A stretch of DNA of 45,601 nucleotides from Gloeobacterales cyanobacterium ES-bin-141. Its GTDB lineage: Bacteria > Cyanobacteriota > Cyanobacteriia > Gloeobacterales > Gloeobacteraceae. This document shows positions 933 to 23,724 of the stretch, piece by piece. Under the pieces are notes generated by a model. The model searched no databases. It saw only the letters and a program-made list of their open reading frames with translations, and had not been told where the DNA came from. Location of the stretch: positions 1 through 45,601 of the forward strand of contig JACMIX010000046.1 in assembly GCA_014380935.1 (NCBI GenBank). Reading direction: 5' to 3'. Numbering within the stretch: the stretch's first letter is position 1; each line of letters starts with the position of its first letter. Both the position numbers and the translations under genes were made by a program.

Positions 933-966
933 TCAGGCCGGGTTTCGACCCGGCCTGATTCGTTTT
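933..966. terminator. Intrinsic terminator between convergent genes
   Basis: An 11-bp perfect stem TCAGGCCGGGT / ACCCGGCCTGA (933-943, 948-958) with a TTCG loop is followed by TTCGTTTT. It lies between the stop of the + strand hydrolase (889) and the stop of the - strand sulfotransferase (965). Confidence 0.7.
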
Positions 967-1963
967 AAACGTTGTAGCCCATTGCAATCATTGTTTCCGC
1001 GAACAGGGGCTGCAAGACTAGATGAACAGGGAAAGGCGGCTTGGGTGGAGCAGGAGAGAGAGTCTGGCGAGCGTACGAGAGAAACTTATCGTCCGGGGGC
1101 AACTCACAAAATTTCAACAACTCCGGCAGGCTCGTTTCCGGTTTTGAGACCATGTCTTCGTACCGCACCATGTGCACGCAGTCCGGTAGCTCGTTCAACA
1201 GGCGTAGACCCTGCCGCATGACCGCGATCCACTCGACGATGGCCATATCCGTATGGTCTGTCATCTTGACCACCTCATCGACAATACCTGCGAAGGCAGG
1301 ATCCGTCTTGACCACCTGCTCTACCAGCAAGTTCCACTTCCGGTTGTTTGCCCCCCACCAATCGTGAGTCTCCTGCTCAACAGCCATGCCTTCCCGATTG
1401 GACCATTGCTCAATCGAACGGCAGGTGTCCCAACCGTTGCGGACCAGCAAAATGAACCGGGCATCAGGAAAGATAGCGCGTACGAAGGGGACTCGAAAAA
1501 TGAGTTCCGGATACTTGTCCAGTACTCTTCTAGAAGCAACTGCCGTCAAGTACGCTCCGAATAGCCGATGGGCCGACTGGCGAACGTCGTCTGTCACCTC
1601 TTCCGCGCCCAGGCAGTAATGACCAACACCCCGGCTATAACTGCCAATGACATCTTCATAGGGGTAAATCGCGTGCCAGAGGGCCTTCGGCTCGTTCAAG
1701 AAACCAATCTGCTTATGCATCGACATCACAAGGCCCAGGATAGTAGTACCACTACGCCCGGTACCAAGAATAAAAATGGGCTTTTCTACCTGTCTGCTCT
1801 GGGGAAGACGCTTTTCTAGATTGAATAACGCAAACACCAGCGGGTTTATCCACCTGCCTTTGGTGACCAAAGGTCTTCCTTCAAACAGAGCGTAGCTCAG
1901 CAACCGGGACACGGCCTTAGCTGGCCGCGTCTTGATGTAAAGGGAATCCATCTGAGCAACCAT
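965..1963 (-). CDS. Sulfotransferase family protein (Sulfotransfer_3-like)
   Basis: PAPS-binding 5'-PSB-like motif GTGRSGTTILG and 3'-PB-like LLVRNGWDTCRS are present. The ORF-track start at 2002 is a TTG overlapping the upstream stop. ATG at 1963 has AGGA 6 nt upstream and avoids the overlap. Confidence 0.75.
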   Translation of the reverse strand: MVAQMDSLYIKTRPAKAVSRLLSYALFEGRPLVTKGRWINPLVFALFNLEKRLPQSRQVEKPIFILGTGRSGTTILGLVMSMHKQIGFLNEPKALWHAIYPYEDVIGSYSRGVGHYCLGAEEVTDDVRQSAHRLFGAYLTAVASRRVLDKYPELIFRVPFVRAIFPDARFILLVRNGWDTCRSIEQWSNREGMAVEQETHDWWGANNRKWNLLVEQVVKTDPAFAGIVDEVVKMTDHTDMAIVEWIAVMRQGLRLLNELPDCVHMVRYEDMVSKPETSLPELLKFCELPPDDKFLSYARQTLSPAPPKPPFPVHLVLQPLFAETMIAMGYNV

Positions 1964-1994
1964 ACTGCATCCTGCTGAAAGAATAATGTTGTGA

Positions 1995-2894
1995 TCAACC
2001 AAGCCACTTGGGGAGGTTGTTGTAGCCCCTGGCCAGGAGCTGAGCGGTCAGCCGCTTGTTGTAGGGGGCAAAGTACCCGCGCGCACGTACCAGTGTGCTA
2101 TCAGAAATGACCTCGCTCTGAGACTTTCCGTTTAAAGCATAGTAAAATTTTCTCCCGACTTCCTTGAGTGCCGGATAGGTTCTGAGGAATCTCTCACCGC
2201 TGGTATTGACTAGAAGAGCAGCCTGATGCAAGACCCCGCTTTTGTAGCTAACCGTCTTGTTCTCGACCCCCAGTTCGAGAGAGTTATACACAGAAGCGTC
2301 GATGTCCAGCCAGTCGCACAGTTCTTTTAACAGTAGAGAAGAATCGCTCTTTAATTGGTCGAAGAATAGAATCTTAAGAGAACTACCAAATGTATCAAAC
2401 CAGTCCTCCATATAATCGGCGTAGAACCCGCCCTGAACCCCCCAATACTGGTTATTTTCTCTGCGCTTTACGGCATGTGGGTCCATCGTTTCGCATGTGT
2501 TTATGTATTCTTCGAAAGATAAAGAACTATCCAGTTCCATCATGCTTTTTTTGAACTTGAAAAACGAGAGCAGACGGTCTGTCGGTTCCCTGAGAATAAT
2601 AATAATTTTCACATCACCGAGCTGACTTTTGATCGCCCTGGCAACAGCTGCACCCCCATAGAAATAGCCCGGGGTTGCCTCCATGATGTACTTTTGAGCG
2701 CCGCACTGTTTAAAGTTCTGGACATATTGCTCGAGCGGTTCTGGTTGCTCTCCGTACCTCAAAGGCAGGAAATAGCACGTCTCCTTTTTGCTGGAGGCGC
2801 AGACATCCGGGTGCGCAGACAGGTACGAAAACAGGGACGTCGTCCCTCCCTTGTTGACTCCTGCAATGATCAGATTGGGCAATTTGCTTGTCAT
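1995..2894 (-). CDS. Sulfotransferase (Sulfotransfer_1-like)
   Basis: ATG start at 2892-2894. It has 5'-PSB motif NKGGTTSLFSYL and 3'-PB motif ILREPTDRLLSFF. It is a clear paralog of the 5676..6620 product. Confidence 0.8.
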   Translation of the reverse strand: MTSKLPNLIIAGVNKGGTTSLFSYLSAHPDVCASSKKETCYFLPLRYGEQPEPLEQYVQNFKQCGAQKYIMEATPGYFYGGAAVARAIKSQLGDVKIIIILREPTDRLLSFFKFKKSMMELDSSLSFEEYINTCETMDPHAVKRRENNQYWGVQGGFYADYMEDWFDTFGSSLKILFFDQLKSDSSLLLKELCDWLDIDASVYNSLELGVENKTVSYKSGVLHQAALLVNTSGERFLRTYPALKEVGRKFYYALNGKSQSEVISDSTLVRARGYFAPYNKRLTAQLLARGYNNLPKWLG

Positions 2895-2896: not shown

Positions 2897-4096
2897 TTAC
2901 ATAACCTTACTGTAGACGTCCATGAGCCGGTGGTAGTGGGCTTCTGCACTGAACTGCATTTCTACCTTGCGCCTGCCTGCTTGCCCCATCTTTACTGCCT
3001 GGTCTCGGTGATCCGCCATCCATTGCAGACGGTCTTGCAGAGCTTCGACGTTACCGGGTTCAATCAAGAAGCCATCTGTGCCGTCGCAGACAACCTCCGT
3101 CATACCGCCTATGCGGCTGGCAATAACAGGACGTCCGTGTGCAAAGGATTCAATCAATGTCAGTCCAAAAGTTTCGTACCATTCGGAGGGCGAAATTGTG
3201 CAGATGGCCCCCCGGATCAAGTCGGTCAGGGCTTGCTCTCTCTGGTGACCCAAAATGCGCACGTGCTTCAGGTCGTGCTGCTGAACGTACTCTTCCACCT
3301 CTGCACGGGCCTTTCCATCCCCAACAATCAGCAAAGGTGTGCGTACCGACTGCATGGCTTTGAGCAGAGTGAAGATGCCCTTGAGCCGCTCGAGTCGGCC
3401 GAAATAGAGGAAGTATTCTCCAACTTCGCCGCAGGGCGAGATCCCGGACAGGTCCGTGAAGTTATGCACTGTCGTGACTTTGTGCGCAGGAACACCAAGC
3501 TCGATGACCTTGTTGCGCAAAAAATCGCTGACCGCGATGAAATGATCGACTTTGTCCACCGCCCCCAGCAGGGTGGACACGTAGGACTCCGCTGCACTGA
3601 GTACAGACCGGGCCAGAGACCCCTGGTTGCACCGCCTCGCCGCTACCTGCCAGAAGTTGTGACCTTCGCAGGCCTGGCAGATCTGGCCGTTCGAGAGGAG
3701 GGTGTAAACGGGGCAGACAATCTTGTACTCGTGCAGGGTCTGCACGACCGGAATTTTCGCCCTGCGCAGAGGTGCCAGGATAGAAGACGTCAGCTGACCA
3801 TAGTAGATGTGTAGATGGGCGATGTCAGGCCGGTGATCCGACAAGAGTCGTTGCAGTGCCTCGGCTGCGGGTCTGGAGTACAGGAAGCGGATGATATCGG
3901 CGGGGGTTGGGGAGTCAAAATTGACGGCATCCGGAAAATACGCGGACCAGTCAGTCGGCTGGTTCTTGGGATGATTGGCCGTGAAAGGTATGACCTGATG
4001 GCCCCTGGCCTCAAGCAACTCAGCCACAGAGAAGTAGTAGCGGTCTGAGCCCCCCCTGATGTAGTAGTTTTGCGAGACGTTGAGTACACTGAGCAT
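2897..4096 (-). CDS. Glycosyltransferase family 4 (GT-B, retaining type)
   Basis: C-terminal EX7E-type region EWYETFGLTLIESFAHGRPVIAS...DGTDGFLIEPGN. The ORF-track start at 4411 would overlap the upstream gene by 256 nt. ATG at 4094-4096 gives a typical N-terminus, MLSVLNVSQNYYIRGGSDRYY. Confidence 0.8.
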   Translation of the reverse strand: MLSVLNVSQNYYIRGGSDRYYFSVAELLEARGHQVIPFTANHPKNQPTDWSAYFPDAVNFDSPTPADIIRFLYSRPAAEALQRLLSDHRPDIAHLHIYYGQLTSSILAPLRRAKIPVVQTLHEYKIVCPVYTLLSNGQICQACEGHNFWQVAARRCNQGSLARSVLSAAESYVSTLLGAVDKVDHFIAVSDFLRNKVIELGVPAHKVTTVHNFTDLSGISPCGEVGEYFLYFGRLERLKGIFTLLKAMQSVRTPLLIVGDGKARAEVEEYVQQHDLKHVRILGHQREQALTDLIRGAICTISPSEWYETFGLTLIESFAHGRPVIASRIGGMTEVVCDGTDGFLIEPGNVEALQDRLQWMADHRDQAVKMGQAGRRKVEMQFSAEAHYHRLMDVYSKVM

Positions 4097-4155: not shown

Positions 4156-5643
4156 CTATTTGAGACCCTGGGTTGCCCTTACAGACAGTGTGCCCTTCGC
4201 AGCCGGTCGATTCGCCAATCCAAACAACAAGCCCGGCAACAACCAGAAATAAGTGCCATAGATTCGGAACTCGAGCGAGCGATTGAAGAACATCACAAAG
4301 CTGGTTGCCACCACGACGTACATGACGATCAACGACAGTTGTTTGATCTGCCGGTCGTCGCTGGCTTTGTACAGAGATTGGGCGGCGGAGTAAGTTCTGT
4401 AGAACAGCCACATAATTACAAATAGACCCGCAAGACCATAGAAGGTCAGAATCGCTACCCAGTAGACGTCTTTGAAGCCCTCCTCAGTCCACACCTTGGT
4501 CAGATACTCGCTTCTGCTCAAGTTGATGTCCTCGATCGCACCAAGCTGATCAGGACCGTACCCCAGTAACGGCTTGTTCTCGATTACCACAGGTCCGACA
4601 CCAAAAATGGCCCCGAGACGCTGCGTCCTCGCCTGAGACACATAGGCGGGCGTGAAGACACCAAGGATGTCATCGATTGCACTTTGCTCGGTCATCCTCG
4701 CGTTGCCCTGGTAGCGAAGCGACAGTTGAGACAGCACAATCGGGGTGGTGATCATCAGCACGGCCAGGGTGACCAGGGCGAGAGCTTTTTTCAGATTGCT
4801 CAAAGATGCTGAAAAGTGCAGCGTGGCAATGATGAGAATCGCGAAGAAACAGGCTCGGACGTATGTGAGTACGATAGCAAAGGCGATCAACAGCATCAGG
4901 GCATAGGCAATATTTCTGCGGGTTTGTTTTGCCTTAGTATCCGGTTGATCGGTGCCTTTGAAAAATCCCGTGGCACCAATATGAAATTCTGCTAGTACAA
5001 GTATGAAAACGAGTACCATGTAGACCCCAAATAGAACGGTGTCGCCAGTCGTTCCGTAAATACTACCGATCTCCCTTCCGTACAGGAGAACGAAAGCCTT
5101 GGTCATGCCCCCGACTTCGATATCGGTCGCCCTCGGCAACAAGATGGGATCGAGTAGGCCTCGACTCACATACTGCAAAATACCTACACCTAGCTCCACG
5201 ACTCCCGCAATAATGGCAGCCCGAATGATCGTTCTTGACTGCTCGGAGGTCAGATCCATATTCACCGCCAGGTAATAAAGAGCGATGTAACGGATGAGCG
5301 GCCTCATATTGATCAGGCATTTAACGAGTGGTATACCGTTAACCAGGGCTGACAGGAGAGCAACGACGAAAAACAGAAAGATAGGCAGGTCAAGCGGCGT
5401 TCCCTGGAATGGCTTTCTCGACACTATCCTGTTGATCATCACCAGGGAAAAGATTGAATAAATCAACAATTCTCTGATGAACCGAGAGTAAAAATAGATA
5501 GAGTCGGGACCCGGTATAAATTTGAGGATAAAGTCTTCATACGGCGTAAAGATGACCAGGAGCAAGACCAGCAAGTACGGAATTCCTGCTACCTTCTTTT
5601 GTGGTAGGGTCGGACTCAACTCAACAGGAAAGGTGTTTTTCAT
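4156..5643 (-). CDS. Polytopic membrane protein, O-antigen polymerase/ligase (Wzy-like) family
   Basis: 495 aa with about 10 or more hydrophobic segments and a larger loop in the C-terminal third. ATG at 5641-5643. It sits among GT and sulfotransferase genes. The family assignment rests on architecture and context only. Confidence 0.6.
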   Translation of the reverse strand: MKNTFPVELSPTLPQKKVAGIPYLLVLLLVIFTPYEDFILKFIPGPDSIYFYSRFIRELLIYSIFSLVMINRIVSRKPFQGTPLDLPIFLFFVVALLSALVNGIPLVKCLINMRPLIRYIALYYLAVNMDLTSEQSRTIIRAAIIAGVVELGVGILQYVSRGLLDPILLPRATDIEVGGMTKAFVLLYGREIGSIYGTTGDTVLFGVYMVLVFILVLAEFHIGATGFFKGTDQPDTKAKQTRRNIAYALMLLIAFAIVLTYVRACFFAILIIATLHFSASLSNLKKALALVTLAVLMITTPIVLSQLSLRYQGNARMTEQSAIDDILGVFTPAYVSQARTQRLGAIFGVGPVVIENKPLLGYGPDQLGAIEDINLSRSEYLTKVWTEEGFKDVYWVAILTFYGLAGLFVIMWLFYRTYSAAQSLYKASDDRQIKQLSLIVMYVVVATSFVMFFNRSLEFRIYGTYFWLLPGLLFGLANRPAAKGTLSVRATQGLK

Positions 5644-5675: not shown

Positions 5676-6620
5676 CTATTTTGGACTGGTCTCACGACTG
5701 GAGGCTGCCTGCCACGGAATAGGTCTGCCAAGCAATTCGGACAGAGCCTGATTTTCCTGCTTGTAATAATCGTTCAGCATAGCCTTTACGGCCGGCGAGA
5801 ACTCGGGCTTCTCGAGCGGTTGCGCGTTCAGACGCAGGTAAAGGGGTTCAAATGCTGCCCGCATCGTCCTCAAGGCCGTACGAATGCCTGCCTGGTTATG
5901 CACAAAATTGCGCATCTTGAAACGGACTCGCGTATACATCTGGTGTAGACCCGGATTCTTCATGGCCTGGGTCGAGTTGAACACCTTGAAATCGTAACCG
6001 GTATAAAACTTTGAATCGATCCCGACAAACTTGCAGAGCGCGTCGAGCACCGATGCCGGATCTTTGGACAAGTCTTCATACAGAATAATGTGGATGTTTT
6101 CTTTGCCGAAGACCTCCAGGTACGGACGCAAATAGGTGTAGTAGCGTCCTTGCTCGAGGGCTCGCAGATGTTGTTTTGTCTTGGGGCTGTCGTTCTGGAG
6201 TTGCTGGTTGACGTACTCGTCGAGGGTGATGTCCTGGGACAGTTGGCCAATTTGTTGGGCGAATGTGTACCAGGAGATAATCCGCGAGGTTGGCTCACGC
6301 AGGATGAAGACCAATTTAACCGCAGGCAAGGAGTCTTGTAGACTCTTGGGAGTAACCGATGAGTAGAGGTAATCGGGTGTGGCTTCAAGGCGTACGCGTG
6401 TATCCTGACACTCGCAGAAAAACTCTTCGTATTTTGCCAACCCATCCTCAAGCCGATACTTTGAGGGCAACGGATAGTCAGAATCCAGAAAGAAGCGTGT
6501 CTCTTTGATGTTTGCTCCGCAAACCTGCGGGTGTTCCTTTAAGTAGGCGAACAGCGAGGTTGTCGCGGCCTTGGTCGTGCCGCCTATGATTAAGTACAAA
6601 TGATCGTCTGACTTCGGCAT
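5676..6620 (-). CDS. Sulfotransferase (Sulfotransfer_1-like)
   Basis: 5'-PSB motif TTKAATTSLFAYL and 3'-PB motif ILREPTSRIISWY. ATG at 6618-6620 directly abuts the rfbD stop codon (TAG ATG on the minus strand). Confidence 0.8.
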   Translation of the reverse strand: MPKSDDHLYLIIGGTTKAATTSLFAYLKEHPQVCGANIKETRFFLDSDYPLPSKYRLEDGLAKYEEFFCECQDTRVRLEATPDYLYSSVTPKSLQDSLPAVKLVFILREPTSRIISWYTFAQQIGQLSQDITLDEYVNQQLQNDSPKTKQHLRALEQGRYYTYLRPYLEVFGKENIHIILYEDLSKDPASVLDALCKFVGIDSKFYTGYDFKVFNSTQAMKNPGLHQMYTRVRFKMRNFVHNQAGIRTALRTMRAAFEPLYLRLNAQPLEKPEFSPAVKAMLNDYYKQENQALSELLGRPIPWQAASSRETSPK

Positions 6621-7517
6621 CTAATTTACCTCAGTGTTGCTGCTCATGTCTTGAAACACCTGTCCTAGACCTACCTGCCATTCCGTCAAGCTTAATCCAA
6701 ACGTACCGGACAGCTTTGCACAGTTGAGTGAAGAATATGCCGGTCGTCGCGCGGCAGTTGGATACTCCTCGGTGGTAATGGGTAAGAGTCTTTGCAGACG
6801 TTGCTTATCTCGGCGGGGATCACCTTCGACAATTGCCCTGGCAAAGCCGTACCAGGTCGTCTGCCCACTTGCGGTCAGGTGATACAGACCACCCTGGTGC
6901 CGCAGCAGTTCTACAGGGTTGCCGCCCTGGAGAATCTGTGCTGTCAGATTAGCGATCAGGGGACTGGAGGTCGGGGCACCTGTCTGGTCATCGACAACTT
7001 TGAGCTCTTCGCGATCGTGGGCAAGACGCAAAATAGTCAGCAGGAAATTTTTGCCCGAACAATCGTAGACCCAGCTTGTCCTCAAGATTAAATAGGGTGC
7101 GCCAACCGCCTGTACTGCCTGCTCTCCAGCCAGTTTCGTCCGGCCGTATACACCCGTGGGGTCCGGGCTGTCCGACTCGTCGTAGGGACTTGCTTTTTTG
7201 CCGTCAAATACATAGTCCGTCGAATAATGCACGATTGCCGCACCGAGTCGTCCGGCTTCTTCTGCCATGATCCCGGGTGCAACCGCGTTGATCGCGTGTG
7301 CTAGATCAGGCTCGCTCTCGGCTTTATCAACAGCAGTATAAGCAGCCGCGTTGACGATTAGGTCCGGTTTGACTGCACGGACGGTGCGAACAATACTATC
7401 CGGTTGAGCAAGATCAACAACCTCCCGGCCCACAGCAACAACTTCACCCAGGGGAGCGAGTGTTCGTTGCAGTCGCCGGCCCACCTGGCCGTCTTTTCCG
7501 GTCAGAAGAATCTTCAA
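6621..7517 (-). CDS. rfbD: dTDP-4-dehydrorhamnose reductase
   Basis: N-terminal Rossmann motif [13 protein letters not shown] and an RmlD-like sequence throughout. TTG start at 7515-7517 overlaps the rfbC stop (TTGA). Confidence 0.9.
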   Translation of the reverse strand: MKILLTGKDGQVGRRLQRTLAPLGEVVAVGREVVDLAQPDSIVRTVRAVKPDLIVNAAAYTAVDKAESEPDLAHAINAVAPGIMAEEAGRLGAAIVHYSTDYVFDGKKASPYDESDSPDPTGVYGRTKLAGEQAVQAVGAPYLILRTSWVYDCSGKNFLLTILRLAHDREELKVVDDQTGAPTSSPLIANLTAQILQGGNPVELLRHQGGLYHLTASGQTTWYGFARAIVEGDPRRDKQRLQRLLPITTEEYPTAARRPAYSSLNCAKLSGTFGLSLTEWQVGLGQVFQDMSSNTEVN

Positions 7518-8071
7518 GGCTGATACCTGGGTAACTTTGCCGGCTCAATAGCAGCCAGGGTCAGGTTTTTCTGGTCCTTGGCAGACAGAGCAACGTCTTG
7601 AAGCGGCCAGGTTATCCCAATTTGCGGGTCATTCCAGGCTACCCCTCCCTCGTCTTCGGGATGGTAAAAGTCTCCGCATTTGTAGACAAATTCGGCTGTC
7701 TCGGACAACACGACAAAACCATGTGCGAAGCCAGCTGGAATGTAGATCTGATGTTTGTTCTCAGCCGAAAGTACAACACCTACCCATTTGCCGAAGTTTG
7801 GCGAGCCGTGGCGGATATCGACTGCCACATCGAAGACCTCGCCCTGGACAACGCAGCAGAGCTTGGATTGGGGATAGTTCAGCTGATAGTGCAAACCCCT
7901 CAGGACACCCTTTACCGAGCGAGAGCGGTTGTCCTGGACAAAGGTATCCGGGATTCCCATCTCGGCAAACCTGGTTTGGTGATAACTTTCGAAGAAAAAG
8001 CCCCGGTCATCACCGAACACCTTTGGCTCTACTAGGCAGACTTCTGGTAGCGCAGTTTCAATACGTCTCAT
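7514..8071 (-). CDS. rfbC: dTDP-4-dehydrorhamnose 3,5-epimerase
   Basis: Canonical RmlC cupin sequence ([16 protein letters not shown]...LRGLHYQ...GFAHGF). The ATG overlaps the rfbA stop (ATGA). Confidence 0.92.
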
Positions 8072-8949
8072 CTTAGTTGCTCGTCGTCTTTGATCAGATT
8101 GGTCAAGTACTGCGCGTAGTCAGTATTTCCCAATCTCTTGGCCTGGGCCAGCACTCGGTCAGCGCAAATGTAACCAAGTTGATAGGCGATTTCCTCAAGA
8201 CAGGCAACTTTGAGTCCCTGGCGCTGTTCGATAGTCTGGATAAAGTTTCCGGCCTGCAATAGAGACTCGTGCGTTCCGGTGTCGAGCCAGGCAATGCCCC
8301 TTCCCATACGTTCGACTTTGAGCTTGGCTTCTTGCAAGTAATAGTTGTTGACTTCGGTAATTTCCAGCTCGCCGCGCCAGGATGGTTTGACCTGCGTGGC
8401 GATGTCGGTGATGTATTTATCGTAAAAATACAGGCCCACCACGGCGTAATTGGACTTGGGAGCTTTCGGTTTTTCCTCTATACAGAGCACACAGCCATCT
8501 TTGTCGTACTCAATGACCCCATAGCGTTCTGGGTCCTTGACGTAGTACCCGAAGATCGTCGCACCACTCGTTCGCTCGGCAGCACGACGGAGCATCTCGG
8601 TCAGTCCGTAGCCGTGGAAAATGTTGTCGCCCAAGATTAAGCAGGCAGCTTCGCCAGCTAGAAAGTCGCGTCCGATGATAAAAGCCTGGGCAAGCCCGTC
8701 AGGACTCGGCTGCACAGCATACTGGAGGTTCAGGCCGTACAGGCTACCGTCTCCGAGCAAGCGCTCGTACTGTGGCAAATCAATCGGTGTCGAGATGAGC
8801 AAAATATCCCGGATCCCCGCGAGCATCAAGACCGAGAGGGGGTAATAAATCATTGGCTTGTCGTAAACAGGTAGAAGCTGCTTGCTCACCCCATTGGTAA
8901 TTGGGTAGAGCCGCGATCCCTTACCTCCGGCTAGAATAATACCTTTCAC
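8068..8949 (-). CDS. rfbA: Glucose-1-phosphate thymidylyltransferase
   Basis: [18 protein letters not shown] nucleotidyltransferase motif and RmlA-like sequence throughout. The GTG start overlaps the rfbB stop (GTGA). Confidence 0.95.
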
Positions 8950-10016
8950 AACTCTCTCCTCGTGTAGTTGGTGGCAATCCAGCTTTTGTAGGCACCGCTG
9001 ACGACATCTTGCACCCAGTCCAGGTTGTCCAGATACCAGCTAACCGTCTTGCGGATACCGGTCTCGAAGCTCTCCTGGGGTTTCCATCCCAGCTCCTGCT
9101 CAATCTTGCGCGCGTCGATTGCGTAACGTCGGTCGTGTCCGGGCCTATCGGTCACAAACTGGATTTGTTGTCTGTAGCTACCTTGCTCGCGCGGCTTCAG
9201 TTCATCGAGAATGTCGCAGAGGGTGTGCACGACATCTTTGTTTGTCTTTTCGTTCCAGCCGCCGATGTTGTAAGTCTCACCAACCCTTCCTCTTGACATG
9301 ACTTCTCGTATGGCGGTGCAGTGATCCCGCACGTACAGCCAGTCACGGATATTGCTGCCATCTCCGTAGATTGGCAACGGTTTACCCTCAAGGGCATTCA
9401 AGAGGACGAGCGGGATCAATTTCTCCGGGTACTGGTAGGGACCATAGTTATTTGAGCAGTTGGTAGTCAGGGTTGGGAGCCCGTAGGTGTGGTGATAGGC
9501 ACGCACCAGATGATCTGAGGACGCCTTGGAGGCGGCGTAGGGACTATTGGGTTGGTAGGGATTCTGTTCTGAGAAGGGCGGGTCCGCGGGTCCAAGCGAA
9601 CCGTACACTTCGTCGGTTGAAACATGCAAAAACCGGAAGTCTGTCTTGCTGTCCTGGTCAAGTTCCTGCCAGTAGACACGCACTTCTTCGAGTAGATTGA
9701 ACATGCCTACGATGTTGGTCTGAATAAACTCCCCGGGCGCGTGGATCGAGCGATCCACGTGGCTCTCAGCGGCAAAATTGACAATTACGCGGGGGTGGTA
9801 CTTTGAGAGCAAGTTTCTGAGCAGTCCTCGATCGCCAATGTCTCCGTGTACAAAAACGTGTCTGGCCTCGGATTGCAGACTGGCCAGATTACTCAAATTG
9901 CCAGCGTAGGTCAATTTGTCTAGATTGAGAACAAGCCCACCGGTGGCAATCTGTTCTAGAACAAAGTTTGATCCGATAAAACCTGCCCCACCGGTTACTA
10001 AAATACAGTCGTTCAA
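8946..10016 (-). CDS. rfbB: dTDP-glucose 4,6-dehydratase
   Basis: [12 protein letters not shown] Rossmann motif and YAASKASSD catalytic YxxxK. TTG start at 10014-10016 is preceded by GAGGTG 5 nt upstream. Confidence 0.95.
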
Positions 10017-10117
10017 CTTTTCACCTCGGGTATTTCGTTTTTCGGAATGCAGAGGTCATGGGTACCTGGATCAAGCTGACCTCACTATTCTTCCCAGGTA
10101 CCCACGGTCTCTAGCAG

Positions 10118-16296: not shown

Positions 16297-16461
16297 AGTT
16301 GACTCACTGAAGAAGGAAGATATGTCGGAGGGCCGGCAGTGTGAGCCGGTGAGCTTGCGTACATCATAGTTCCCTGGCCGAGCCGGGTAATGTAAGCAAA
16401 GTCGCCGACCTAGAAATGCCGTACGTGTGCTGCTCAGTTCCTACTGAAAACTGACGTTTAT

Positions 16462-16504
16462 GATCATATAAGAGTGCCACCCATTCACGCGTAAATGGGT
16501 GGCA
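16462..16504 (-). terminator. Intrinsic terminator of glpX
   Basis: An 11-bp perfect stem TGCCACCCATT / AATGGGTGGCA (16475-16485, 16494-16504) with an 8-nt loop lies 38 nt after the glpX stop. On the minus strand it is followed by CTCTTATAT. Confidence 0.6.
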
Positions 16505-16541
16505 TTGAATGAGCAATTGTTTGCTCCAGCACAAGGTGGAT

Positions 16542-17579
16542 TTAGAGTACCAGGCTGACGCGATTAGATGTGTCCAAAATATGAGTGGTATCGACGAACC
16601 GGATTGTGTTCGACTGGCTCGAGATGACCATCGTCTCAGTCCGTATGGCACCGCTAAGAAAACGTACACCTTTGATGAAGTCTCCGTCGGTGATGCCTGT
16701 CGCCGCAAACAAAACCGTCTCTCCAGACGCGAGTTCCTCTGCTTCATAGCATTTGTCGGGTTGCTCGATCCCCATCTCCTTGAGGCGAGCTTCCGTCTCT
16801 TTCATGGGAGGAAGCAGCCCGGTCTTCACCACCTCGGGATCGTAGATTAACCGACCCTGAAAATGCGCTCCCAGAGGACGCAGAGCTGCTGCCGAGATCA
16901 CACCCTCAGGAGCTGCTCCAATTCCCATCAAAGCATGAACACCTGTACCATTTATGCCAGCTGACAACGCCGCGGAAATATCTCCGTCCGAGATCAGCCG
17001 CACCCGCGCTCCTGCCGAACGGATCTCAGCAATCAGATCTTTGTGACGCGAACGGTCCATCACAATGACCAGCAAATCTTCAACGTTTAGCTCCAAACAT
17101 TCTGCAATAATCTGCAAGTTTTTTGTTGGCGGATAATCGAGATGTATTTTGCCTTTGGTTTGGGGTGGAGCAGCAAGCTTCTGCATGTAAAGGTCAGGAG
17201 CATTGAAAAGACCGCCCTTCTGAGAAATTGCCAGGACCGCCATCGAACCCTGCTGACCCTCAGCAACAAGGTTGGTGCCTTCGCACGGATCGACGGCAAT
17301 ATCAATTTCAATTAGCTCGTCCGGATTGCAAAAATTCTTCGCATCCTCTCGTGTACAGATACCAACCTGCTCACCTATGTAGAGCATGGGTGCATCGTCG
17401 CGCTCACCTTCTCCAATGACAATGCGGCCACGCATGTATATTTCATTCATGCGTTCGCGCATGGCTTTGACTGCCACGGCATCCGCTTCGTCCTTGAGCC
17501 CCTTGCCCATCAAGCGGGCTGAGGCGATCGCTGCCTGCTCGACAACTTCAATAATCTCCAAGCCAAGGGTCTTTTCCAT
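16542..17579 (-). CDS. glpX: Class II fructose-1,6-bisphosphatase / sedoheptulose-1,7-bisphosphatase
   Basis: GlpX-family sequence over the full length ([27 protein letters not shown]...DPCEGTN...), 345 aa, as in the cyanobacterial bifunctional F-I enzyme. Confidence 0.93.
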
Positions 17580-17744
17580 GGCTGCTCCTCGCTGTCACGT
17601 ACGGCCTTTCGCTCAACAGTGTACCAGAAGGCCTACTACATCCGGGCTGAGTTGTCCCGCTGAGAAGACTACCTTTGAACACCCAAGCAGCATGGTTGCT
17701 TTGTGCAGGAGATTTGCACAAAAATCGATACACGTTTTCTCAGA

Positions 17745-17793
17745 CAAGGAGCATTCGAGCGCACTCAAGGTGTCGTCTCAAACATTCCACAGC
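17745..17793 (+). repeat. Copy A of a conserved non-coding element (core AGCGCACTCAAGGTGTCGTCTC)
   Basis: 40 of 49 positions are identical to 23933-23981 in the same orientation, and the core is 21/22 identical. Weaker similarity continues to about 17832 / 24027. It lies in the 376-nt spacer upstream of glpX. Confidence 0.7.
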
Positions 17794-17955
17794 AAACTGA
17801 ATTGCACGAGCTACTCTGTTCTGTTGCTTGGTTGAGGCAGCAAACACCTAAACGCGATTGCAGCTACCTTATGAAAAATAGCGGCCCTGCACTTCCACAT
17901 GCCGTATCCGAGAATACACGGGGGTACGGACTTAAGTAACCACCCACATCGCACG

Positions 17956-19413
17956 TTAGTAGGCACCGCTTCTTTGTAGAACAACCCTGATCGTTTTTAA
18001 TAGGATTTGCCAGTCAAGCCAGAGCGACCAACTCTCGATGTACGTGACATCCAGACGGACTACTTGCTCAAAGTCCGTGATGTCCGAACGGCCAGAGACC
18101 TGCCACAAACCTGTCAGCCCGGGCAGTACTTCATTGCGTATAAAGTGATGTTCTTCAAACTTCTGCGAGTCGTGTACGGAGAAGGGGCGGGGGCCGACAA
18201 GACTCATGTCTCCCAGTAAAACGTTGAACAACTGCGGCAACTCATCTAGACTGTAACGCCGCAGAAATTTGCCCACACGCGTGACTCGCGGATCTTCCTT
18301 CATTTTGAATAGGAAGCCATCCTTCATTTCATTCTTTTCTTCTAGTTCTTTCTGCATTTTCTCTGCATTCACGACCATCGAGCGAAACTTCCAGATCTTG
18401 AAGTGATGGCCTTTAAGACCCACACGGTCTTGCTTGTAGAGTAGAGGACCGGGCGAATCGAGTTTGATGAGGAGCATGATTAACAGATAGAGAGGGCTGA
18501 CAAATACCAGAATCGATAAAGTCGCCAGGATATCAAAGCTCCGTTTTACCCAGAAGTCGCTTCCTGTGACGAGTGGAGGAGAAAACCGCGCGCAGGGCAG
18601 TCCCCCGATCATCTGTAGTTCTGCTTTCTGGCAGACTGGTTCGAACCCAACCGGTAGAATGTGAAGCGTGATCCCGGCATTGCGCAGACTCCAGTACAAA
18701 AACATCGGATCTTTGACTGAATCCCACGAACACACGAAAACCTCGGTTACGCGCAAAGAACAGATTTTCTCAAGAACCGCCTCCCAATCTCGTCCACTCC
18801 AGTCATTGACATCGGAAGATCCCAGAATGTTGTAACGGTTCTCCTGGGCCAGTAAATGGACGGCTTTCTGGGTGTCCTGGGGGTGACCAAGCATGAAGAC
18901 CGGATAGCGTCCTGTACCTTGCTTACGGAAATGCTCAACGACAATGTTGATGCCGAAACGACCTACTAAGATAAACATCGCGCTCAAGAACCAGGCAAGT
19001 ACAAAGGTTATGCGTGAGACAAAAATACCCGGTCTATAAAAGAAAGCAATCAGGAGCAGGAGGATATGGGCAAACGTGACTGCCTTGGTAAGGCCCAAGT
19101 AATCACGCCGCTTGCTCCCTGATTGGTACAAACCCTCAGTTGCCATCAACCCGATTACGATGACAAGAATCGGCAACAGCGAGAGTGGATTTTGCTCTAC
19201 ATTCCAGGGGGAGATTGATCTTGTGCTACCCAGTGCCTCTGCCAGTTGCCAGGCAGCAGACAACAATACGCTATCCAGCAGAATTAACGTGGTGATCCGC
19301 AGCCATCCGGCACCAAGCCCGCGCCGGAGACCAGTGAAGATCGGTGCACGCAGATCGGACTTAAAATTTGCCTGAGAAGATTTTCTTTGGGGTACCGTAG
19401 ATAACTTAACCAC
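17956..19413 (-). CDS. Polyprenyl-phosphate hexose-1-phosphate transferase (WbaP/WcaJ-type priming sugar transferase)
   Basis: N-terminal TM bundle plus the canonical Bac_transf domain KRSFDILATLSILVFVSPLYL...KFRSM...DELPQLFNVLLGDMSLVGPRP. GTG start at 19411-19413 with AAGGAG 8 nt upstream. Confidence 0.9.
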   Translation of the reverse strand: MVKLSTVPQRKSSQANFKSDLRAPIFTGLRRGLGAGWLRITTLILLDSVLLSAAWQLAEALGSTRSISPWNVEQNPLSLLPILVIVIGLMATEGLYQSGSKRRDYLGLTKAVTFAHILLLLIAFFYRPGIFVSRITFVLAWFLSAMFILVGRFGINIVVEHFRKQGTGRYPVFMLGHPQDTQKAVHLLAQENRYNILGSSDVNDWSGRDWEAVLEKICSLRVTEVFVCSWDSVKDPMFLYWSLRNAGITLHILPVGFEPVCQKAELQMIGGLPCARFSPPLVTGSDFWVKRSFDILATLSILVFVSPLYLLIMLLIKLDSPGPLLYKQDRVGLKGHHFKIWKFRSMVVNAEKMQKELEEKNEMKDGFLFKMKEDPRVTRVGKFLRRYSLDELPQLFNVLLGDMSLVGPRPFSVHDSQKFEEHHFIRNEVLPGLTGLWQVSGRSDITDFEQVVRLDVTYIESWSLWLDWQILLKTIRVVLQRSGAY

Positions 19414-19456
19414 GAGTTACACTCCTTGGCTTGGGGTTCTCTAGTGAAGGTTCGAT

Positions 19457-20626
19457 CTAGTCAAGATTCACACGGGTGGGTGAAGCTCTTTTACTTTCGA
19501 GTTCCCCCTCAGGTTCGTACAATGCCACTCCCCGTACGGCCAGGGATTTATAGGCATCGGCTACAGCATTCCAGTCGTAGTAGTCTCGCACTCGCCTCTG
19601 GAGTTGCTCGTGGCGGGTAGGTGATGCCAGAACCCTTCTAAAGTTCTCAGCCAAGCTATCGACTGTGAAGTACTCGCCTAGATCCCCGAGTGCTTCAAGA
19701 CTGAAGGGACTGTCTATAGCTAGAATGCGCGGACACAAAGCCATGGCCTCGAGCAAAGCCGGATTGGTCCCACCGACAGAATTTCCGTGAGCGTAGAAGG
19801 CACAATTACGCCTCAACACGCTGACAACGTCCGCATCGTAGACTGCCGAGCGGATAACGAGCCCGTTGTCCGGCTCAGAGAGGTTGAGCAGTTCGGCGCT
19901 GTAGGGTGTCTTCTGCTTGTAGCCGATGACCAGATGCTTGAAGCCACTCTGGCTCAAACCGGAAGCAATAAAACCCTGGGCGATCTCGACCGGTAGATTG
20001 TCCGGTTCTATACGGGTAATCTGCAAAGAATACATCCCTGGCTCAACACCATACTCCTCCAATATCTCGGCTGCGCGCGCCGGGGAAACCTGGGGTGGGG
20101 TAGGAGCACCATACGGAATAAACGTTGATCTCGCTCCGAAACGCTTGCGGTAGTAAATACCCAATGCCCGAGAGTCTGAGATGATGCTCTTGCAAAGTTT
20201 AGAGACAATTGCAGAAGAAGCAATGTAATAGATTTTGAAGGGCAAAGACCATTTCGGCCTGCGCCATTCAAGACCATCCGTGTTGACGCTGATCGGCATT
20301 CCCGCAAGCTGAGTCATGAGAATGCCAGGCAAGTTTGCGTTGTTGAACCAGAAAACATGCTGGTACTGACTGCGGTTACGGATGAGATGCCATCCTGTCT
20401 GAATAGATGATACAAAAGTATCCAGTTGATTAACTTTAGACCCAGATACATAGACCAACTTTCGACCTTCAAAATAGCTTGGACGCTCGTCGTATAAACC
20501 TGTCCTGCAAAAAACTTCGCAATCGAGTCCGCTAGATGTAAGACGAGAAGTAATCTCTTCCACGGCAGTCTCAAATCCGCCGTATCTTGCTGGTAAACCA
20601 CGCGTGCCGCAAAATGCAATTTTCAC
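19457..20626 (-). CDS. Glycosyltransferase with DUF1972-type N-terminus (WchF/RgpA-like, possible rhamnosyltransferase)
   Basis: N-terminus VKIAFCGTRGLPARYGGFETAVEE is typical of DUF1972 GT-B enzymes. GTG at 20624-20626 has GGGAGA 6 nt upstream. The 51-aa ORF-track extension has no supporting features. Confidence 0.75.
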   Translation of the reverse strand: MKIAFCGTRGLPARYGGFETAVEEITSRLTSSGLDCEVFCRTGLYDERPSYFEGRKLVYVSGSKVNQLDTFVSSIQTGWHLIRNRSQYQHVFWFNNANLPGILMTQLAGMPISVNTDGLEWRRPKWSLPFKIYYIASSAIVSKLCKSIISDSRALGIYYRKRFGARSTFIPYGAPTPPQVSPARAAEILEEYGVEPGMYSLQITRIEPDNLPVEIAQGFIASGLSQSGFKHLVIGYKQKTPYSAELLNLSEPDNGLVIRSAVYDADVVSVLRRNCAFYAHGNSVGGTNPALLEAMALCPRILAIDSPFSLEALGDLGEYFTVDSLAENFRRVLASPTRHEQLQRRVRDYYDWNAVADAYKSLAVRGVALYEPEGELESKRASPTRVNLD

Positions 20627-20873
20627 ACACACTCTCCCTTTTCGGACTAGTTCTAAATGCTGCTTGATTCTTTGCAGCCCCATAGGCAGCTTCAGGCGAT
20701 TTCTAACCCGAAGCAAATACATACCGACGTAAATATTCCTCGTCTCTACATCAGATTGGCGTAGTCGAGAGCTGCACAAACATCTATAGCGTGGATGTTT
20801 GCCCTTGAATTCGAAACGCAGGTAGCCAGCTAATCCGTACCCTAAGATTGCTTTGCCCCCGCTTCACGCGGGC

Positions 20874-21773
20874 CTACCGCTGGGATTCACCACCTAGCTG
20901 CAACCGCAGCCTCTCGGCAGCCCGAGAGTACTTGACGCGTACATGCACAAAAACCACGCTACTCTTCTGGACGAAACCTTTCAGCTTTTTGTCAGAACTC
21001 ACTCGGGATACAAAGCCAACGGGTGGCAACAGATCTCTGACGATGCTCACGGCGGACGCAGCAATTTTTGAGGACGTGCTCCGTTTATCTCGGTCGCGCC
21101 AGCCACCCACAAGTCGCACTTTCTGCTTGCGCAGTTCGTTAAAAGAATGTCTGGCGGGATGCGCTACACGAACATCGTCCGCATAAACCAGTCTGTATCC
21201 AGCAGTGAATACACGCTTACCCCAATCGCTGTCACCACTGGACTTGAGTGTGTCGCTGAAATGGCCAACTTTCTCAAGCACAGTTTTAGAAGTAAACAGG
21301 TTCGCGGTCACGCTGAATCTCTCCACTTCAACGTACCTTTGCTGTGGAAAGGCCACGAGCCTTTCGTATAGTTCAACAGCCGTGGGTTGGGAAGCATCTC
21401 GAAAGAAGATTTCTACTTTACCGCCAACAAGACCACAATTGGTTTCGCGAAGCAGGGTATCCACTCCCCGCTCGATCCAATTCTGAGCAGGTATACAATC
21501 AGCATCCGTAAAAGCAATAATCTCACCTTTGGCAAGGGAAAGGCCTTTATTACGAGCTGCGTAAGAGCCTGGTTTGCTTTCGGATGTAGCGATTGCTTGA
21601 CTGAAGTGATGAACCAAAGGCTCGATACTTTTGTCCGAACCGTTATCAACAGCAATCACTTCGTACCTATTGCGTGGATAGGTTTGCTTCTCCAGAGCCT
21701 CCAAACAAGTCTGGAGACGCTCGAGATCGTTATAGACCGGAATTATGACGGAGACAAGTGGTTCAAGCAGCAT
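20874..21773 (-). CDS. Glycosyltransferase family 2
   Basis: VSVIIPVYNDLERLQTCLEALEKQTY...VIAVDNGSD...AFTDADC, the classic GT2 (GT-A) N-terminal domain. ATG at 21771-21773. Confidence 0.85.
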   Translation of the reverse strand: MLLEPLVSVIIPVYNDLERLQTCLEALEKQTYPRNRYEVIAVDNGSDKSIEPLVHHFSQAIATSESKPGSYAARNKGLSLAKGEIIAFTDADCIPAQNWIERGVDTLLRETNCGLVGGKVEIFFRDASQPTAVELYERLVAFPQQRYVEVERFSVTANLFTSKTVLEKVGHFSDTLKSSGDSDWGKRVFTAGYRLVYADDVRVAHPARHSFNELRKQKVRLVGGWRDRDKRSTSSKIAASAVSIVRDLLPPVGFVSRVSSDKKLKGFVQKSSVVFVHVRVKYSRAAERLRLQLGGESQR

Positions 21774-21806
21774 AATTACACCACTCCTCTAAAGTATGTC
21801 TTGTCT

Positions 21807-23636
21807 CTACACTGGTAGAGACTGTAAGTTGTGATAGGACCAGTACAGACCACGGTTCGCAATCAACTGCTCGTGAGGTCCTTGCTCGGTGATGCGGCCC
21901 TGGTCCATGACTACAATGCGGTCCGCATTGCGGACGGTGGCCAGACGATGCGCAATGACGATCACAGTTCGGTTTGCGCGCAGACGCTCCAATGCCTCTT
22001 GCACCAGATTCTCCGATTGAGAGTCGAGAGCACTCGTTGCCTCATCAAGGATCAGAATGTCCGGATCCCTGAGGATAGCCCTTGCGATCGAGATTCTCTG
22101 TCTCTGCCCACCGGAGAGCTGAATCCCTTTATCTCCAACCAGGGTCGCGTAGCCATTGGGCAATTGACAGATAAATTCGTGCGCGTTCGCCAGACGCGCA
22201 GCCTCAATGACTTGTAGATCGGTGACGTCATCTAGACCGTAGGCGATGTTGTCACGGATCGAGGTATTGAATATGTAAGTGTCTTGATTAACAATCGCTA
22301 TACGGCTACGCAAAGAAGTCAGATCGTATTCGGTAATACTACGACCATCGAGTTCAATCGTTCCATCAGAAATGTCGTAGAGACGTGGAACTAGAGCAGC
22401 TAGCGTTGACTTTCCGGCTCCAGACGCTCCAACCAAGGCAACTGTCTGACCGTAAGGCACCTCGAGATTGAATTCCTTCAAGACCGCGGCTCTGCCGGTG
22501 TAGGCAAAAGTCACATTCCGGAAGGAAATGCCCTCGCACAAACCCGTGAACTTTACTTTGCCCGAGAACACCGGGTACTTTGACACTAGTGAAAATCCTT
22601 CGGCAACTTTCCTAAACGAAGCAGCATGCTCTTGAATATGTCCCCTGGAAAGATTTAACTTCTTTGTTACAGGAACAATTTTAATGAGAACCAGCATGAA
22701 TATGAGCAGTTGCGATGTCTCGAGAAGCCCTTGGGCAATAAAGAGTGTGTAACTGCAGACGAGAATGACCATGGCAGCTGCCATGGTTGTGAGCTCCGTG
22801 AGTGGGTCAATCAAACTGCGCTTGTTAGAGACATCCTCGCTGGTATCCATCAATTCGTCGCACATAGCGTTGAAGCGCTCTGTCTCGTAGCCTTCTGCTC
22901 CAAAAGACTTCACGACACGCACACCGCCTAGGACATCTGAGATCTTGGCACTCAGGGTGCGCTTGCGATTTACATTAATAGCACCAGCCGTCTTAATCTT
23001 CTTAACTAGAAGGGTCAGCCCGATCGCTACCGAGCCAATCAACACGACGGTCAGGATTGTCAGCTGCCAGGAGACGAGAACAAGTATTCCCAAGTATGCT
23101 GCCAAGACTAGCGCACTCGACAGAATAGTAAAGAAGGAGGACATTATCACACTGATACCGTATATCTCAACAAGCAGAGTGCTGGTCAATTTGCCAAGCT
23201 GAGTGGTATCAAAGAAAGTCATCGGGGCGTTGAGGTAAGCCTCGTACAATCGCTTCCTCAAAATAGTAATGCAGGATTCTTGATATAATGAGGTAAGTAC
23301 ATGAGAAACATAGTTGAACCCTGCTTTGACGATAAAAACTGTGACTAGAGCTAATGCAAACGTTATAACTAAACTACTTTTATCCTGTTGACTTATCCAG
23401 GTATTGAGACTTTCTATGGGCAACTGTAAACTTCTCGAATCCTCATTCTTAGAAAGGATGAGCTTCAAGAACGGAAGCATCAGAGCAATACTCAAGCCAT
23501 CGAGTAAGGATGAAATCGCCATCATCGCCAGTCCGAGGTAGAGAGGAACCCGCGGAACATCTCGAGTCAAAGACAATAGCTTCTTGACGTTTCCGTATTT
23601 ATCCTTAGAGTTCAAATTAAGTACTGCCTGAGCCAC
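21807..23636 (-). CDS. Fused TMD-NBD ABC exporter (MsbA/PglK-like)
   Basis: Six-TM domain followed by Walker A GASGAGKST, signature LSGGQRQR and Walker B ILILDEATSALD. GTG at 23636 has GGAGG 9 nt upstream. The ORF-track start at 23678 is a TTG without an RBS, so the start is uncertain. Confidence 0.85.
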   Translation of the reverse strand: MAQAVLNLNSKDKYGNVKKLLSLTRDVPRVPLYLGLAMMAISSLLDGLSIALMLPFLKLILSKNEDSRSLQLPIESLNTWISQQDKSSLVITFALALVTVFIVKAGFNYVSHVLTSLYQESCITILRKRLYEAYLNAPMTFFDTTQLGKLTSTLLVEIYGISVIMSSFFTILSSALVLAAYLGILVLVSWQLTILTVVLIGSVAIGLTLLVKKIKTAGAINVNRKRTLSAKISDVLGGVRVVKSFGAEGYETERFNAMCDELMDTSEDVSNKRSLIDPLTELTTMAAAMVILVCSYTLFIAQGLLETSQLLIFMLVLIKIVPVTKKLNLSRGHIQEHAASFRKVAEGFSLVSKYPVFSGKVKFTGLCEGISFRNVTFAYTGRAAVLKEFNLEVPYGQTVALVGASGAGKSTLAALVPRLYDISDGTIELDGRSITEYDLTSLRSRIAIVNQDTYIFNTSIRDNIAYGLDDVTDLQVIEAARLANAHEFICQLPNGYATLVGDKGIQLSGGQRQRISIARAILRDPDILILDEATSALDSQSENLVQEALERLRANRTVIVIAHRLATVRNADRIVVMDQGRITEQGPHEQLIANRGLYWSYHNLQSLPV

Positions 23637-23724
23637 AGCTATTGACCTCCATGTAAGTTCACAAGTCAGACCAAACAAGTTGCAAGATTAAACTTGTAGA
23701 TACTTGACCGAAGCATATATCCCA

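Follow-up and report, generated by a model that had tools for sequence, protein, structure and literature searches.

On a 45.6-kb contig of the Gloeobacterales cyanobacterium ES-bin-141 (JACMIX010000046.1; this whole stretch is called the window), a run of genes at 965-23678 probably directs the Wzy-type synthesis of an extracellular or capsular heteropolysaccharide that is sulfated and contains L-rhamnose, with supply of the donor of the sulfate, 3'-phosphoadenosine 5'-phosphosulfate (PAPS), and removal of its by-product 3'-phosphoadenosine 5'-phosphate (PAP) encoded in the same place. A sulfated, rhamnose-containing exopolysaccharide (EPS) had already been proposed in an original prediction made from the DNA letters, and it remains the best reading of the locus, suggested by a coherent gene set, a sulfotransferase (ST) gene that directly abuts the rhamnose operon, a glycosyltransferase (GT) resembling Cps2T, and two STs resembling heparan-sulfate enzymes. 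About 21 consecutive minus-strand genes had been counted; their identities, strand, order and outer coordinates hold, but the map of open reading frames (ORFs), together with Pfam and NCBIfam, gives 19 intact genes. Every substantial ORF with family support within these bounds lies on the minus strand, and profile searches with each product agree, gene by gene, with the list first drawn up. In the order of transcription, the first half encodes an ABC half-transporter, a family 2 glycosyltransferase (GT2), a DUF1972 GT, a priming transferase, glpX, Wzc, Wza, CysQ, Sat and CysC, and the second half RmlB, RmlA, RmlC, RmlD, ST_C, a Wzy-like protein, a family 4 glycosyltransferase (GT4), ST_B and ST_A. 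A 127-aa ORF at 16364-16747 was rejected as a gene: it overlaps glpX, has no Pfam match and is uncalled in L164, a related contig from Logan run SRR15443081.

The PAPS cycle is represented by three consecutive genes. The cysQ product (11938-12777), a 3'(2'),5'-bisphosphate nucleotidase that converts PAP to AMP, matches Pfam Inositol_P and TIGR01331 (308 bits, cut-off 229); its homologues carry the name CysQ, and its DPIDGT and WDTAAA motifs are intact. The ATP sulfurylase Sat (10757-11929) has PUA_2 and ATP-sulfurylase domains (322 bits for PF01747, and 172 bits) with intact QTRNPIHRAHE and GRDHAG motifs, and its best match in a scan of GTDB species representatives is 72% identical. CysC (10118-10675) is the adenosine 5'-phosphosulfate (APS) kinase, which makes PAPS (Pfam APS_kinase, PF01583, 220 bits). 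They are followed by the four genes of the dTDP-L-rhamnose pathway, all present and intact with Pfam scores of 243-346 bits: rmlB (8946-10016; GDP_Man_Dehyd/Epimerase), rmlA (8068-8949; NTP_transferase), rmlC (7514-8071; dTDP_sugar_isom) and rmlD (6621-7517; RmlD_sub_bind). The rmlB, rmlA, rmlC and rmlD reading frames overlap by 4 nt, and the rmlD stop codon is followed without a gap by the first base of the ST_C gene. These overlaps and this abutment suggest that rhamnose supply and sulfation are coupled, which is the strongest internal argument for the proposed reading.

Three STs are encoded among the GT, Wzy-like and rml genes, all scoring above Pfam cut-offs: ST_C (5676-6620) and ST_B (1995-2894), both of Sulfotransfer_1, and ST_A (965-2002), of Sulfotransfer_3 (88.8 bits), whose probable start is at 1963, since its orthologues begin at its Met14. 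All three had been said to carry the 5'-phosphosulfate-binding (5'-PSB) and 3'-phosphate-binding (3'-PB) motifs for PAPS, and this is upheld by alignments with heparan-sulfate 3-O-sulfotransferase (3-OST) and with XssA and XssE, the STs of the synechan (xss) cluster of Synechocystis PCC 6803. The Lys and Thr of 5'-PSB and the Arg...Ser of 3'-PB are invariant across ST_C, ST_B, XssA and their relatives, as are GxxRSGTT and R...S across ST_A, XssE and orthologues. ST_B can be aligned with 3-OST through the 5'-phosphosulfate loop (GVNKGGTTSL against GVRKGGTRAL), the catalytic Glu motif (MEATPGYF against MEKTPSYF) and the 3'-phosphate motif (ILREPTDRLLS against VVRDPVTRAIS), and the structures nearest to ST_C are the bacterial ST 3RNL, then heparan-sulfate N-deacetylase/N-sulfotransferase and 3-OST. 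Nearness of the STs to small-molecule or glycolipid enzymes, which the original prediction had named as a point that would speak against it, was thus not seen for ST_B and ST_C, whereas ST_A weakly matches the tyrosylprotein sulfotransferase TPST and the CurM sulfotransferase. No hydrophobic (membrane) segment is predicted in any of the three. PAPS being cytoplasmic, the lack of such segments suggests that sulfation would take place on the lipid-linked unit, before flipping.

Genes for assembly and export surround the donor genes. The priming enzyme (17956-19413) is a polyprenyl-phosphate hexose-1-phosphate transferase of WbaP/WcaJ type (Pfam Bac_transf, 231 bits; TIGR03025, 408 bits, cut-off 296) with an intact DELPQ motif, and is 53% identical to XssP over the catalytic domain. 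The DUF1972/GT4-type enzyme (19457-20779; Pfam DUF1972, 67.6 bits) is a probable rhamnosyltransferase, its sole NCBIfam match being the beta-1,4-rhamnosyltransferase Cps2T (140 bits, below cut-off), and this match ties the upstream block to the downstream rml genes. Two further GTs belong to family 2 (20874-21773; Glycos_transf_2, 85 bits) and family 4 (2897-4096; Glycos_transf_1 and Glyco_transf_4), the latter with its likely true start at 4096 and not at 4411, where the longest ORF begins. Wzc (14068-16296) is a polysaccharide co-polymerase with a bacterial tyrosine kinase (BY-kinase) domain (Pfam GNVR, Wzz, AAA_31 and ParA; TIGR01007, 175 bits, cut-off 108), in which the Walker motifs are intact and the C-terminus bears the Tyr cluster YYYYAKEYY. 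Wza (12957-14054, again with a likely start downstream of the longest-ORF start at 14195) is the outer-membrane polysaccharide export protein, with Poly_export and two SLBB domains. The parts of a Wzx/Wzy pathway found here therefore include the priming transferase, a class 2a polysaccharide co-polymerase (PCP-2a) with BY-kinase (Wzc) and an outer-membrane polysaccharide export (OPX) protein (Wza). At the head of the run, the HepA/MsbA-like ABC half-transporter (21807-23678, exact start uncertain; ABC_membrane and ABC_tran) scores 575 bits against HepA_fam_ABC (NF045513), its best-scoring model, 435 against MsbA and 242 against PglK. Because 575 bits is below the 725 cut-off, the protein is HepA-like and not an equivalog; its nearest bacterial solved structure is MsbA, and it is a candidate flippase or exporter of lipid-linked glycans.

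The membrane protein encoded between ST_C and GT4 (4156-5643, 495 aa) is multi-spanning, of Wzy/WaaL fold, and the probable repeat-unit polymerase. A crude hydropathy scan gives nine hydrophobic stretches, some of them overlapping, and the score on Pfam Wzy_C is 20.6 bits (cut-off 31.7). Its family comprises 449 representatives at E <= 0.001, and 39 of 68 aligned members match Wzy_C. Searching the PDB with a 4-sequence profile found nothing; the 68-sequence family profile found the WaaL ligase 7TPG (E 1.4e-4). An AlphaFold model (predicted local distance difference test score 90.3, predicted template modelling score 0.91) gave 7TPG as the sole significant PDB match in Foldseek (E 1.7e-7), then FtsW and RodA, which are shape, elongation, division and sporulation (SEDS) polymerases. 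The Wzy_C matches in the family and the match to 7TPG place the protein in the ligase/polymerase fold, and the term polymerase is preferred because of Wzc and Wza in its context and of the Wzz and flippase genes near its relatives. Orthologues stand at the same position in two related contigs, L158 (48% identity) and L160.

A pathway can be proposed in which every step is inferred from gene identities and gene order. The WbaP-type enzyme would transfer hexose-1-phosphate to undecaprenyl phosphate, the Cps2T-like DUF1972 GT would add L-rhamnose from the dTDP-L-rhamnose made by RmlABCD, and GT2 and GT4 would complete a repeat unit of about four sugars. On the cytoplasmic side, the three soluble STs would sulfate the lipid-linked unit with PAPS from Sat and CysC, while CysQ would hydrolyse the inhibitory product PAP. 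The HepA/MsbA-like ABC exporter, or else a flippase whose gene lies elsewhere, might then flip the unit, the Wzy/WaaL-fold protein would polymerise it, and Wzc and Wza would export the polymer.

The arrangement itself appears sound. L164 is collinear with the window over 8840-20038 (87% nucleotide identity, proteins 85-99% identical) in the order DUF1972-wbaP-glpX-wzc-wza-cysQ-sat-cysC-rmlB-rmlA', and since this assembly is independent, the gene order is taken to be real and stable; a chimeric assembly is thereby ruled out. The contig is a piece of cyanobacterial chromosome, carrying the split rpoC1/rpoC2 pair typical of cyanobacteria, rplC/rplD, recO and dapF. Folding and comparison with L164 left three strong hairpins. 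A 13-bp, terminator-like stem-loop lies just 3' of the glpX stop codon (16475-16504, minus strand; -20.7 kcal/mol, z -4.6) and is present in L164. A 15-bp stem-loop between wza and cysQ (12889-12922, minus strand; -32.3 kcal/mol, z -8.5) may be a terminator or a site of processing, and two compensatory changes preserve it in L164. An 11-bp GC-rich hairpin (933-958; -23.1 kcal/mol, z -6.5) marks the 3' end of the cluster, between ST_A and a convergent glycoside hydrolase gene. The stem-loops that follow glpX and wza speak against transcription as one operon, and the genes probably form four transcription units, to judge by their layout: the ABC gene to wbaP, glpX, wzc-wza, and cysQ to ST_A. Promoter and terminator consensus scans gave overall counts no better than shuffles. 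In the wza-cysQ spacer (12778-12956, minus strand), a nearly invariant stretch of 60 nt follows the stem-loop in comparison with L164, and a promoter-like TTGACA-17-TATTTT lies nearby at 12967-12939; the spacer is possibly a regulatory element of the PAPS/rml/ST unit.

The glpX gene (16542-17579), which lies inside the run, encodes a class II fructose-1,6-/sedoheptulose-1,7-bisphosphatase (FBP/SBPase; TIGR00330, 332 bits, above cut-off). It scores 532 bits with about 80% identity against the Calvin-cycle FBP/SBPase of Synechocystis (3ROJ), which rules out an EPS-specific enzyme, and its position is conserved in L164. It is a Calvin-cycle housekeeping gene and a probable passenger.

The 3' half of the cluster has relatives in public contigs. 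A cassette of ST_C, Wzy-like protein, GT4 and ST_A recurs in the same relative order in L071 (GCA_034691105.1, probably cyanobacterial), L072, L158 and L159 (ENA ERZ27258749 and ERZ27259148) and L160, with identities to the window of 52-57% for ST_C (L071, L072, L158, L160), 35-48% for the Wzy-like protein, 33-63% for GT4 (61-63% in L071 and L158) and 61-68% for ST_A. The ST_A orthologues at this identity (L071, L072, L158) are always within polysaccharide cassettes. DUF1972 GTs accompany the cassettes of L071, L072 and L158 as well, and a DUF1972 GT and Wza or Wzz/GNVR are found near cassettes in the related contigs. Within view, neither rml nor PAPS genes are present in these contigs, unlike in the window; upstream of ST_C they carry a MurJ-family flippase gene, and methyltransferases or glycoside hydrolases are often present.

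This difference bears on how the repeat unit would cross the membrane. The MurJ-family gene lies directly upstream of the ST_C orthologue in five of five relatives examined (L071, L072, L158, L159 and L160) and is 53-78% identical among L071, L072, L158 and L160, and in the window its position is occupied by rmlBACD. No Wzx/MurJ flippase was found in the 45.6 kb: no ORF of at least 100 aa bears a Pfam flippase domain, and tblastn of the window with four MurJ-family cassette flippases and with XssH gave nothing (best E 0.69). The original prediction had called the locus a single self-sufficient module, which was an overstatement, given the lack of a flippase in the window, the housekeeping glpX inside and the stem-loops after glpX and wza. 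The flippase may be encoded elsewhere, or the ABC exporter may stand in its place, and as the ABC protein resembles HepA, MsbA and PglK, it could conceivably flip the repeat unit. The absent gene poses a testable question, namely how a highly charged repeat unit crosses the membrane.

Linkage of PAPS genes to glycan genes was looked for in other contigs, as the original prediction had suggested. In L162 and L074 (ENA ERZ25070591), cysQ-sat-cysC stand in the same order as in the window (64%, 72% and 75-77% identity) and adjoin genes for a sugar-nucleotide epimerase, a WecG GT, a priming transferase and a Wzc-like protein, and L162 has a GT4 and an ST about 9 kb upstream as well; these contigs differ from the window in lacking the rml operon and in their GTs and STs. 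Directly before the triad, both carry a gene of the CitMHS/Na_sulph_symp (Na+/sulfate symporter) family (8133-9902, plus strand), reminiscent of the sulfate permease in the Cobetia locus described below; no counterpart of this gene was found in the window. Leptolyngbya sp. SOY_34 (L065) has a co-directional GT2-GT2-GT4-sat-cysC-cysQ run, which adjoins a squalene-hopene cyclase gene (13157-15136, minus strand). In about four lineages of one clade (L077-L091, L139), the closest metagenomic relatives of CysC (68-74%) are encoded directly upstream of wza-wzc, and hetR on L078 (5918-6898) identifies this clade as filamentous cyanobacteria; in its contigs, neither ST nor GT genes turned up within 10 kb. 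Counter-examples exist, with cysQ-cysC beside unrelated genes (L073), sat-cysC-cysQ alone (L082), sat alone (L001, L002) and cysQ alone (L075, L163). The synteny is thus found in L162/L074, L065 and the cysC-wza-wzc clade and is absent at L073 and L082. Its recurrence in several probably or certainly cyanobacterial contigs offers a simple genomic marker for producers of sulfated polysaccharides. Two further ideas are speculative and unlikely to hold: that PAPS-EPS gene linkage is a general cyanobacterial theme, with polysaccharide sulfation as a main role of CysC there, and that in this lineage the ABC half-transporter took over flipping from the MurJ-family flippase. If the takeover were true, the locus would represent a route that depends on Wzy, Wzc and Wza but not on Wzx, and that handles a heavily sulfated, polyanionic repeat unit linked to lipid.

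To our knowledge, the xss cluster on plasmid pSYSM of Synechocystis PCC 6803 is so far the one characterised cyanobacterial cluster for a sulfated polysaccharide. It shares with the window a Wzy-type organization, STs of two subfamilies (ST_C resembling XssA, and ST_A resembling XssE), a priming transferase, GT4, a polymerase (a probable one in the window) and a Wzc-type co-polymerase. Rhamnose and sulfate are both constituents of its product, synechan (Maeda et al. 2021, PMC8205485). The xss gene content comprises two STs, GTs, the Wzx flippase XssH, Wzy, Wzc and the regulators XssQ, XssR and XssS, and it lacks sat, cysC, cysQ, rmlBACD, wza and the ABC exporter, all of which the window has. 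The earlier statement that PAPS and rml genes embedded in this way are not the xss architecture is therefore correct. Apart from the priming catalytic domain (53%), the identities are distant (23% between ST_C and XssA, 24% between ST_A and XssE, 28% for GT4), the gene order is different, and xss is plasmid-borne whereas the locus described here is chromosomal, beside rpoC1/rpoC2. ST genes lie within an EPS cluster in both, but the regulatory module and the xssA-P synteny were not found in the window: it holds no XssQ or XssR homologue, and the XssQ box AAGTTNNAC occurs 7 times against 4.8 expected, which is no enrichment. Cyanobacterial ST genes have been described as lying mostly in putative EPS clusters that are 'more or less partial', in a study that makes no mention of PAPS genes (Maeda et al., PMC8205485), and cyanobacterial EPS genes as either dispersed or grouped in small clusters (Pereira et al., PMC4594306). 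No paper that brings together cyanobacteria, a sulfotransferase and either cysQ or APS kinase in one polysaccharide cluster was found in a full-text literature search. The recurrent PAPS-EPS gene linkage in several cyanobacterial lineages appears undescribed in the papers searched.

Outside cyanobacteria, the co-location of PAPS and ST genes has precedents. In Sinorhizobium meliloti, a dedicated pair for ATP sulfurylase and APS kinase, nodPQ, lies together with the carbohydrate sulfotransferase gene nodH, although the substrate is a lipo-chitooligosaccharide signal and not a polymer, and export machinery is not part of it. The capsule locus of Vibrio sp. KMM 8419 carries cysC, cysN and cysD as second copies, together with three STs and rml genes, and its product contains Rha3S; PAPS and ST genes were called 'a hallmark' by its authors, and the capsule locus of Cobetia marina KMM 1449, with a Rha2S product, also has cysQ and a sulfate permease (PMC11641403, PMC11766843). 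Like the window, these loci bring together PAPS-synthesis genes, STs and an rml operon in one polysaccharide locus. They differ in belonging to Gammaproteobacteria, in their CysD/CysN-type sulfurylase, against a homo-oligomeric Sat in the window, and in their size of 70-80 genes, and export there follows the Kps ABC-transporter capsule route and not Wzy/Wzc/Wza, so the same logic is served by other machinery. In the actinomycete Actinoplanes missouriensis, deletion of AMIS_7390 (Sat/APS-kinase family) leaves sporangium formation severely defective, and the wps-1 cluster of the same study, a Wzx/Wzy cluster, resembles the window in bringing a glycoside hydrolase together with STs (two of them) from different families; no rml, cysQ or Wza is reported there, and sulfation there is putative (PMC13390465). 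The principle of PAPS genes inside sulfated-polysaccharide clusters is thus already published outside cyanobacteria. New in the window are its cyanobacterial origin, the Wzy/Wzc/Wza type of assembly, the Sat-type sulfurylase, and rml and PAPS genes where relatives carry a flippase.

Several observations weigh against the reading of the locus as a sulfated-polysaccharide system with its own donor cycle. The window has no Wzx/MurJ flippase and probably forms more than one operon, a housekeeping gene interrupts the run, the Wzy_C score is sub-threshold with a modelled fold that fits polymerase and ligase alike, and the nearest solved relatives of ST_A are the TPST and CurM sulfotransferases, at weak E-values. 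In addition, sat-cysC-cysQ-type sets occur away from EPS genes too (L073, L082), and sat, cysC and cysQ, possibly the sole copies in the cell, may serve the general activation of sulfate. The neighbourhood could then be a mosaic, in which cysQ-sat-cysC, perhaps with rmlBACD and glpX, are general-purpose sole copies between two polysaccharide blocks, serving sulfur assimilation, O-antigen synthesis and the Calvin cycle, with sulfation drawing on them and no dedicated PAPS cycle. We regard this as possible but doubtful. It would account for glpX as a standard cyanobacterial FBP/SBPase, for units bracketed by stem-loops, for PAPS genes without EPS neighbours (including the lone cysQ of L075 and L163), and for Sat, which is about 72% identical to lone sat genes in cyanobacterial metagenome-assembled genomes (L001, L002) and to the clustered copy of L074 alike, so that no separate 'EPS-type' clade of Sat is apparent. 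It fits less well with the gene order retained in L164, with PAPS genes that lie, in differing orders, beside genes for glycans or EPS in three or more further lineages, with ST_C joined directly to the rml operon, and with the second, cluster-borne copies of PAPS genes documented in Vibrio KMM 8419. Two pathways lying side by side are quite unlikely: a HepA/HepC-like ABC-exporter glycan system (ABC-GT2-DUF1972-wbaP), and a separate Wzy-dependent system from wzc to ST_A whose priming enzyme and flippase lie elsewhere. The closeness of the ABC protein to HepA, the lower third-codon-position GC content (GC3) of the upstream block (0.49-0.57) than in the rest of the window, glpX and its stem-loop between the blocks, and the typical scattering of cyanobacterial EPS genes in small clusters (PMC4594306) would agree with it. 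Yet the Cps2T-like DUF1972 GT needs dTDP-rhamnose, for which the genes are in the other block; DUF1972 GTs regularly accompany the same ST cassette (L071, L072, L158), the downstream block lacks its own priming enzyme, and the blocks remain together in L164.

The nature of the product and of the acceptor has also been considered. A cell-bound glycan (O-antigen, sheath or S-layer glycan), with the 495-aa protein acting as a WaaL-type ligase and not as a polymerase, seems improbable: Wzc, with its BY-kinase domain and Tyr cluster, and Wza are hallmarks of capsule and EPS export, and the cassette relatives come with Wzz/GNVR and MurJ-type flippases, as in Wzy-dependent polymerisation. On the other hand, the sole significant structural match is a ligase, Wzy_C spans ligases and polymerases, and an MsbA/PglK-like ABC protein fits a Wzk-type, polymerase-independent route. 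That the STs act on glycolipids, peptides or secondary metabolites is highly improbable. Rhizobial and mycobacterial STs do sulfate lipo-oligosaccharides (PMC8205485), and the solved relatives of ST_A point the same way, but all three genes lie in the midst of GT, Wzy-like and rml genes, heparan-sulfate STs are the best alignment partners of ST_B and ST_C, and the orthologues of ST_A keep to polysaccharide cassettes.

If the locus does make a sulfated, rhamnose-containing polysaccharide, it would be of practical interest, as such polymers are sought as biomaterials and drugs. When xss was transferred to another host, the supplies of PAPS and of nucleoside diphosphate sugars were named as limits (PMC13125312). 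A locus in which genes that make PAPS, remove PAP and make dTDP-rhamnose stand beside STs and export genes could be a design template for engineered production, and it is also a possible source of three new carbohydrate sulfotransferases.

The ABC-GT2-DUF1972-wbaP block (17956-23678) is lower in GC content (0.48-0.50) and in GC3 (0.49-0.57) than the housekeeping genes of the window, whose GC3 is 0.60-0.70, and the stretch upstream of the cluster at 23.0-25.0 kb has the lowest GC content in the window (0.458); these values are a hint that the block has a different history. The relatives of RmlB are two Logan contigs (90-94%), and the best named ones are Beta- and Alphaproteobacteria (71-75%; Ramlibacter, Sulfuricella, Methylophilus, Rhizobium), with no cyanobacterial name among the top matches. 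On the evidence of rmlB, the rml operon may have been acquired from Proteobacteria.

Other features were noted around the cluster. The 3' part of a gene for a GH79-family glycoside hydrolase (2-889, plus strand; Glyco_hydro_79C) is convergent with ST_A, and the two have the hairpin at 933-958 in common. Glucuronidases and heparanase belong to GH79, and the enzyme may be a polymer trimmer of this system; glycoside hydrolases are also found in or beside related ST cassettes (L071 has GH42, L158 has GH1 and GH10). Rfam and tRNA scans of the window found nothing. Three plus-strand ORFs (24349-26783) lie between the cluster and rpoC2. One (24349-24885; 178 aa) lacks any Pfam match, and the other two encode a YflT-domain stress protein (25382-26008) and a protein with a BON domain (26115-26783). 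A further GT4 gene (41118-42260, plus strand), 17 kb from the cluster, adjoins a gene for a major facilitator superfamily transporter (39839-41110).

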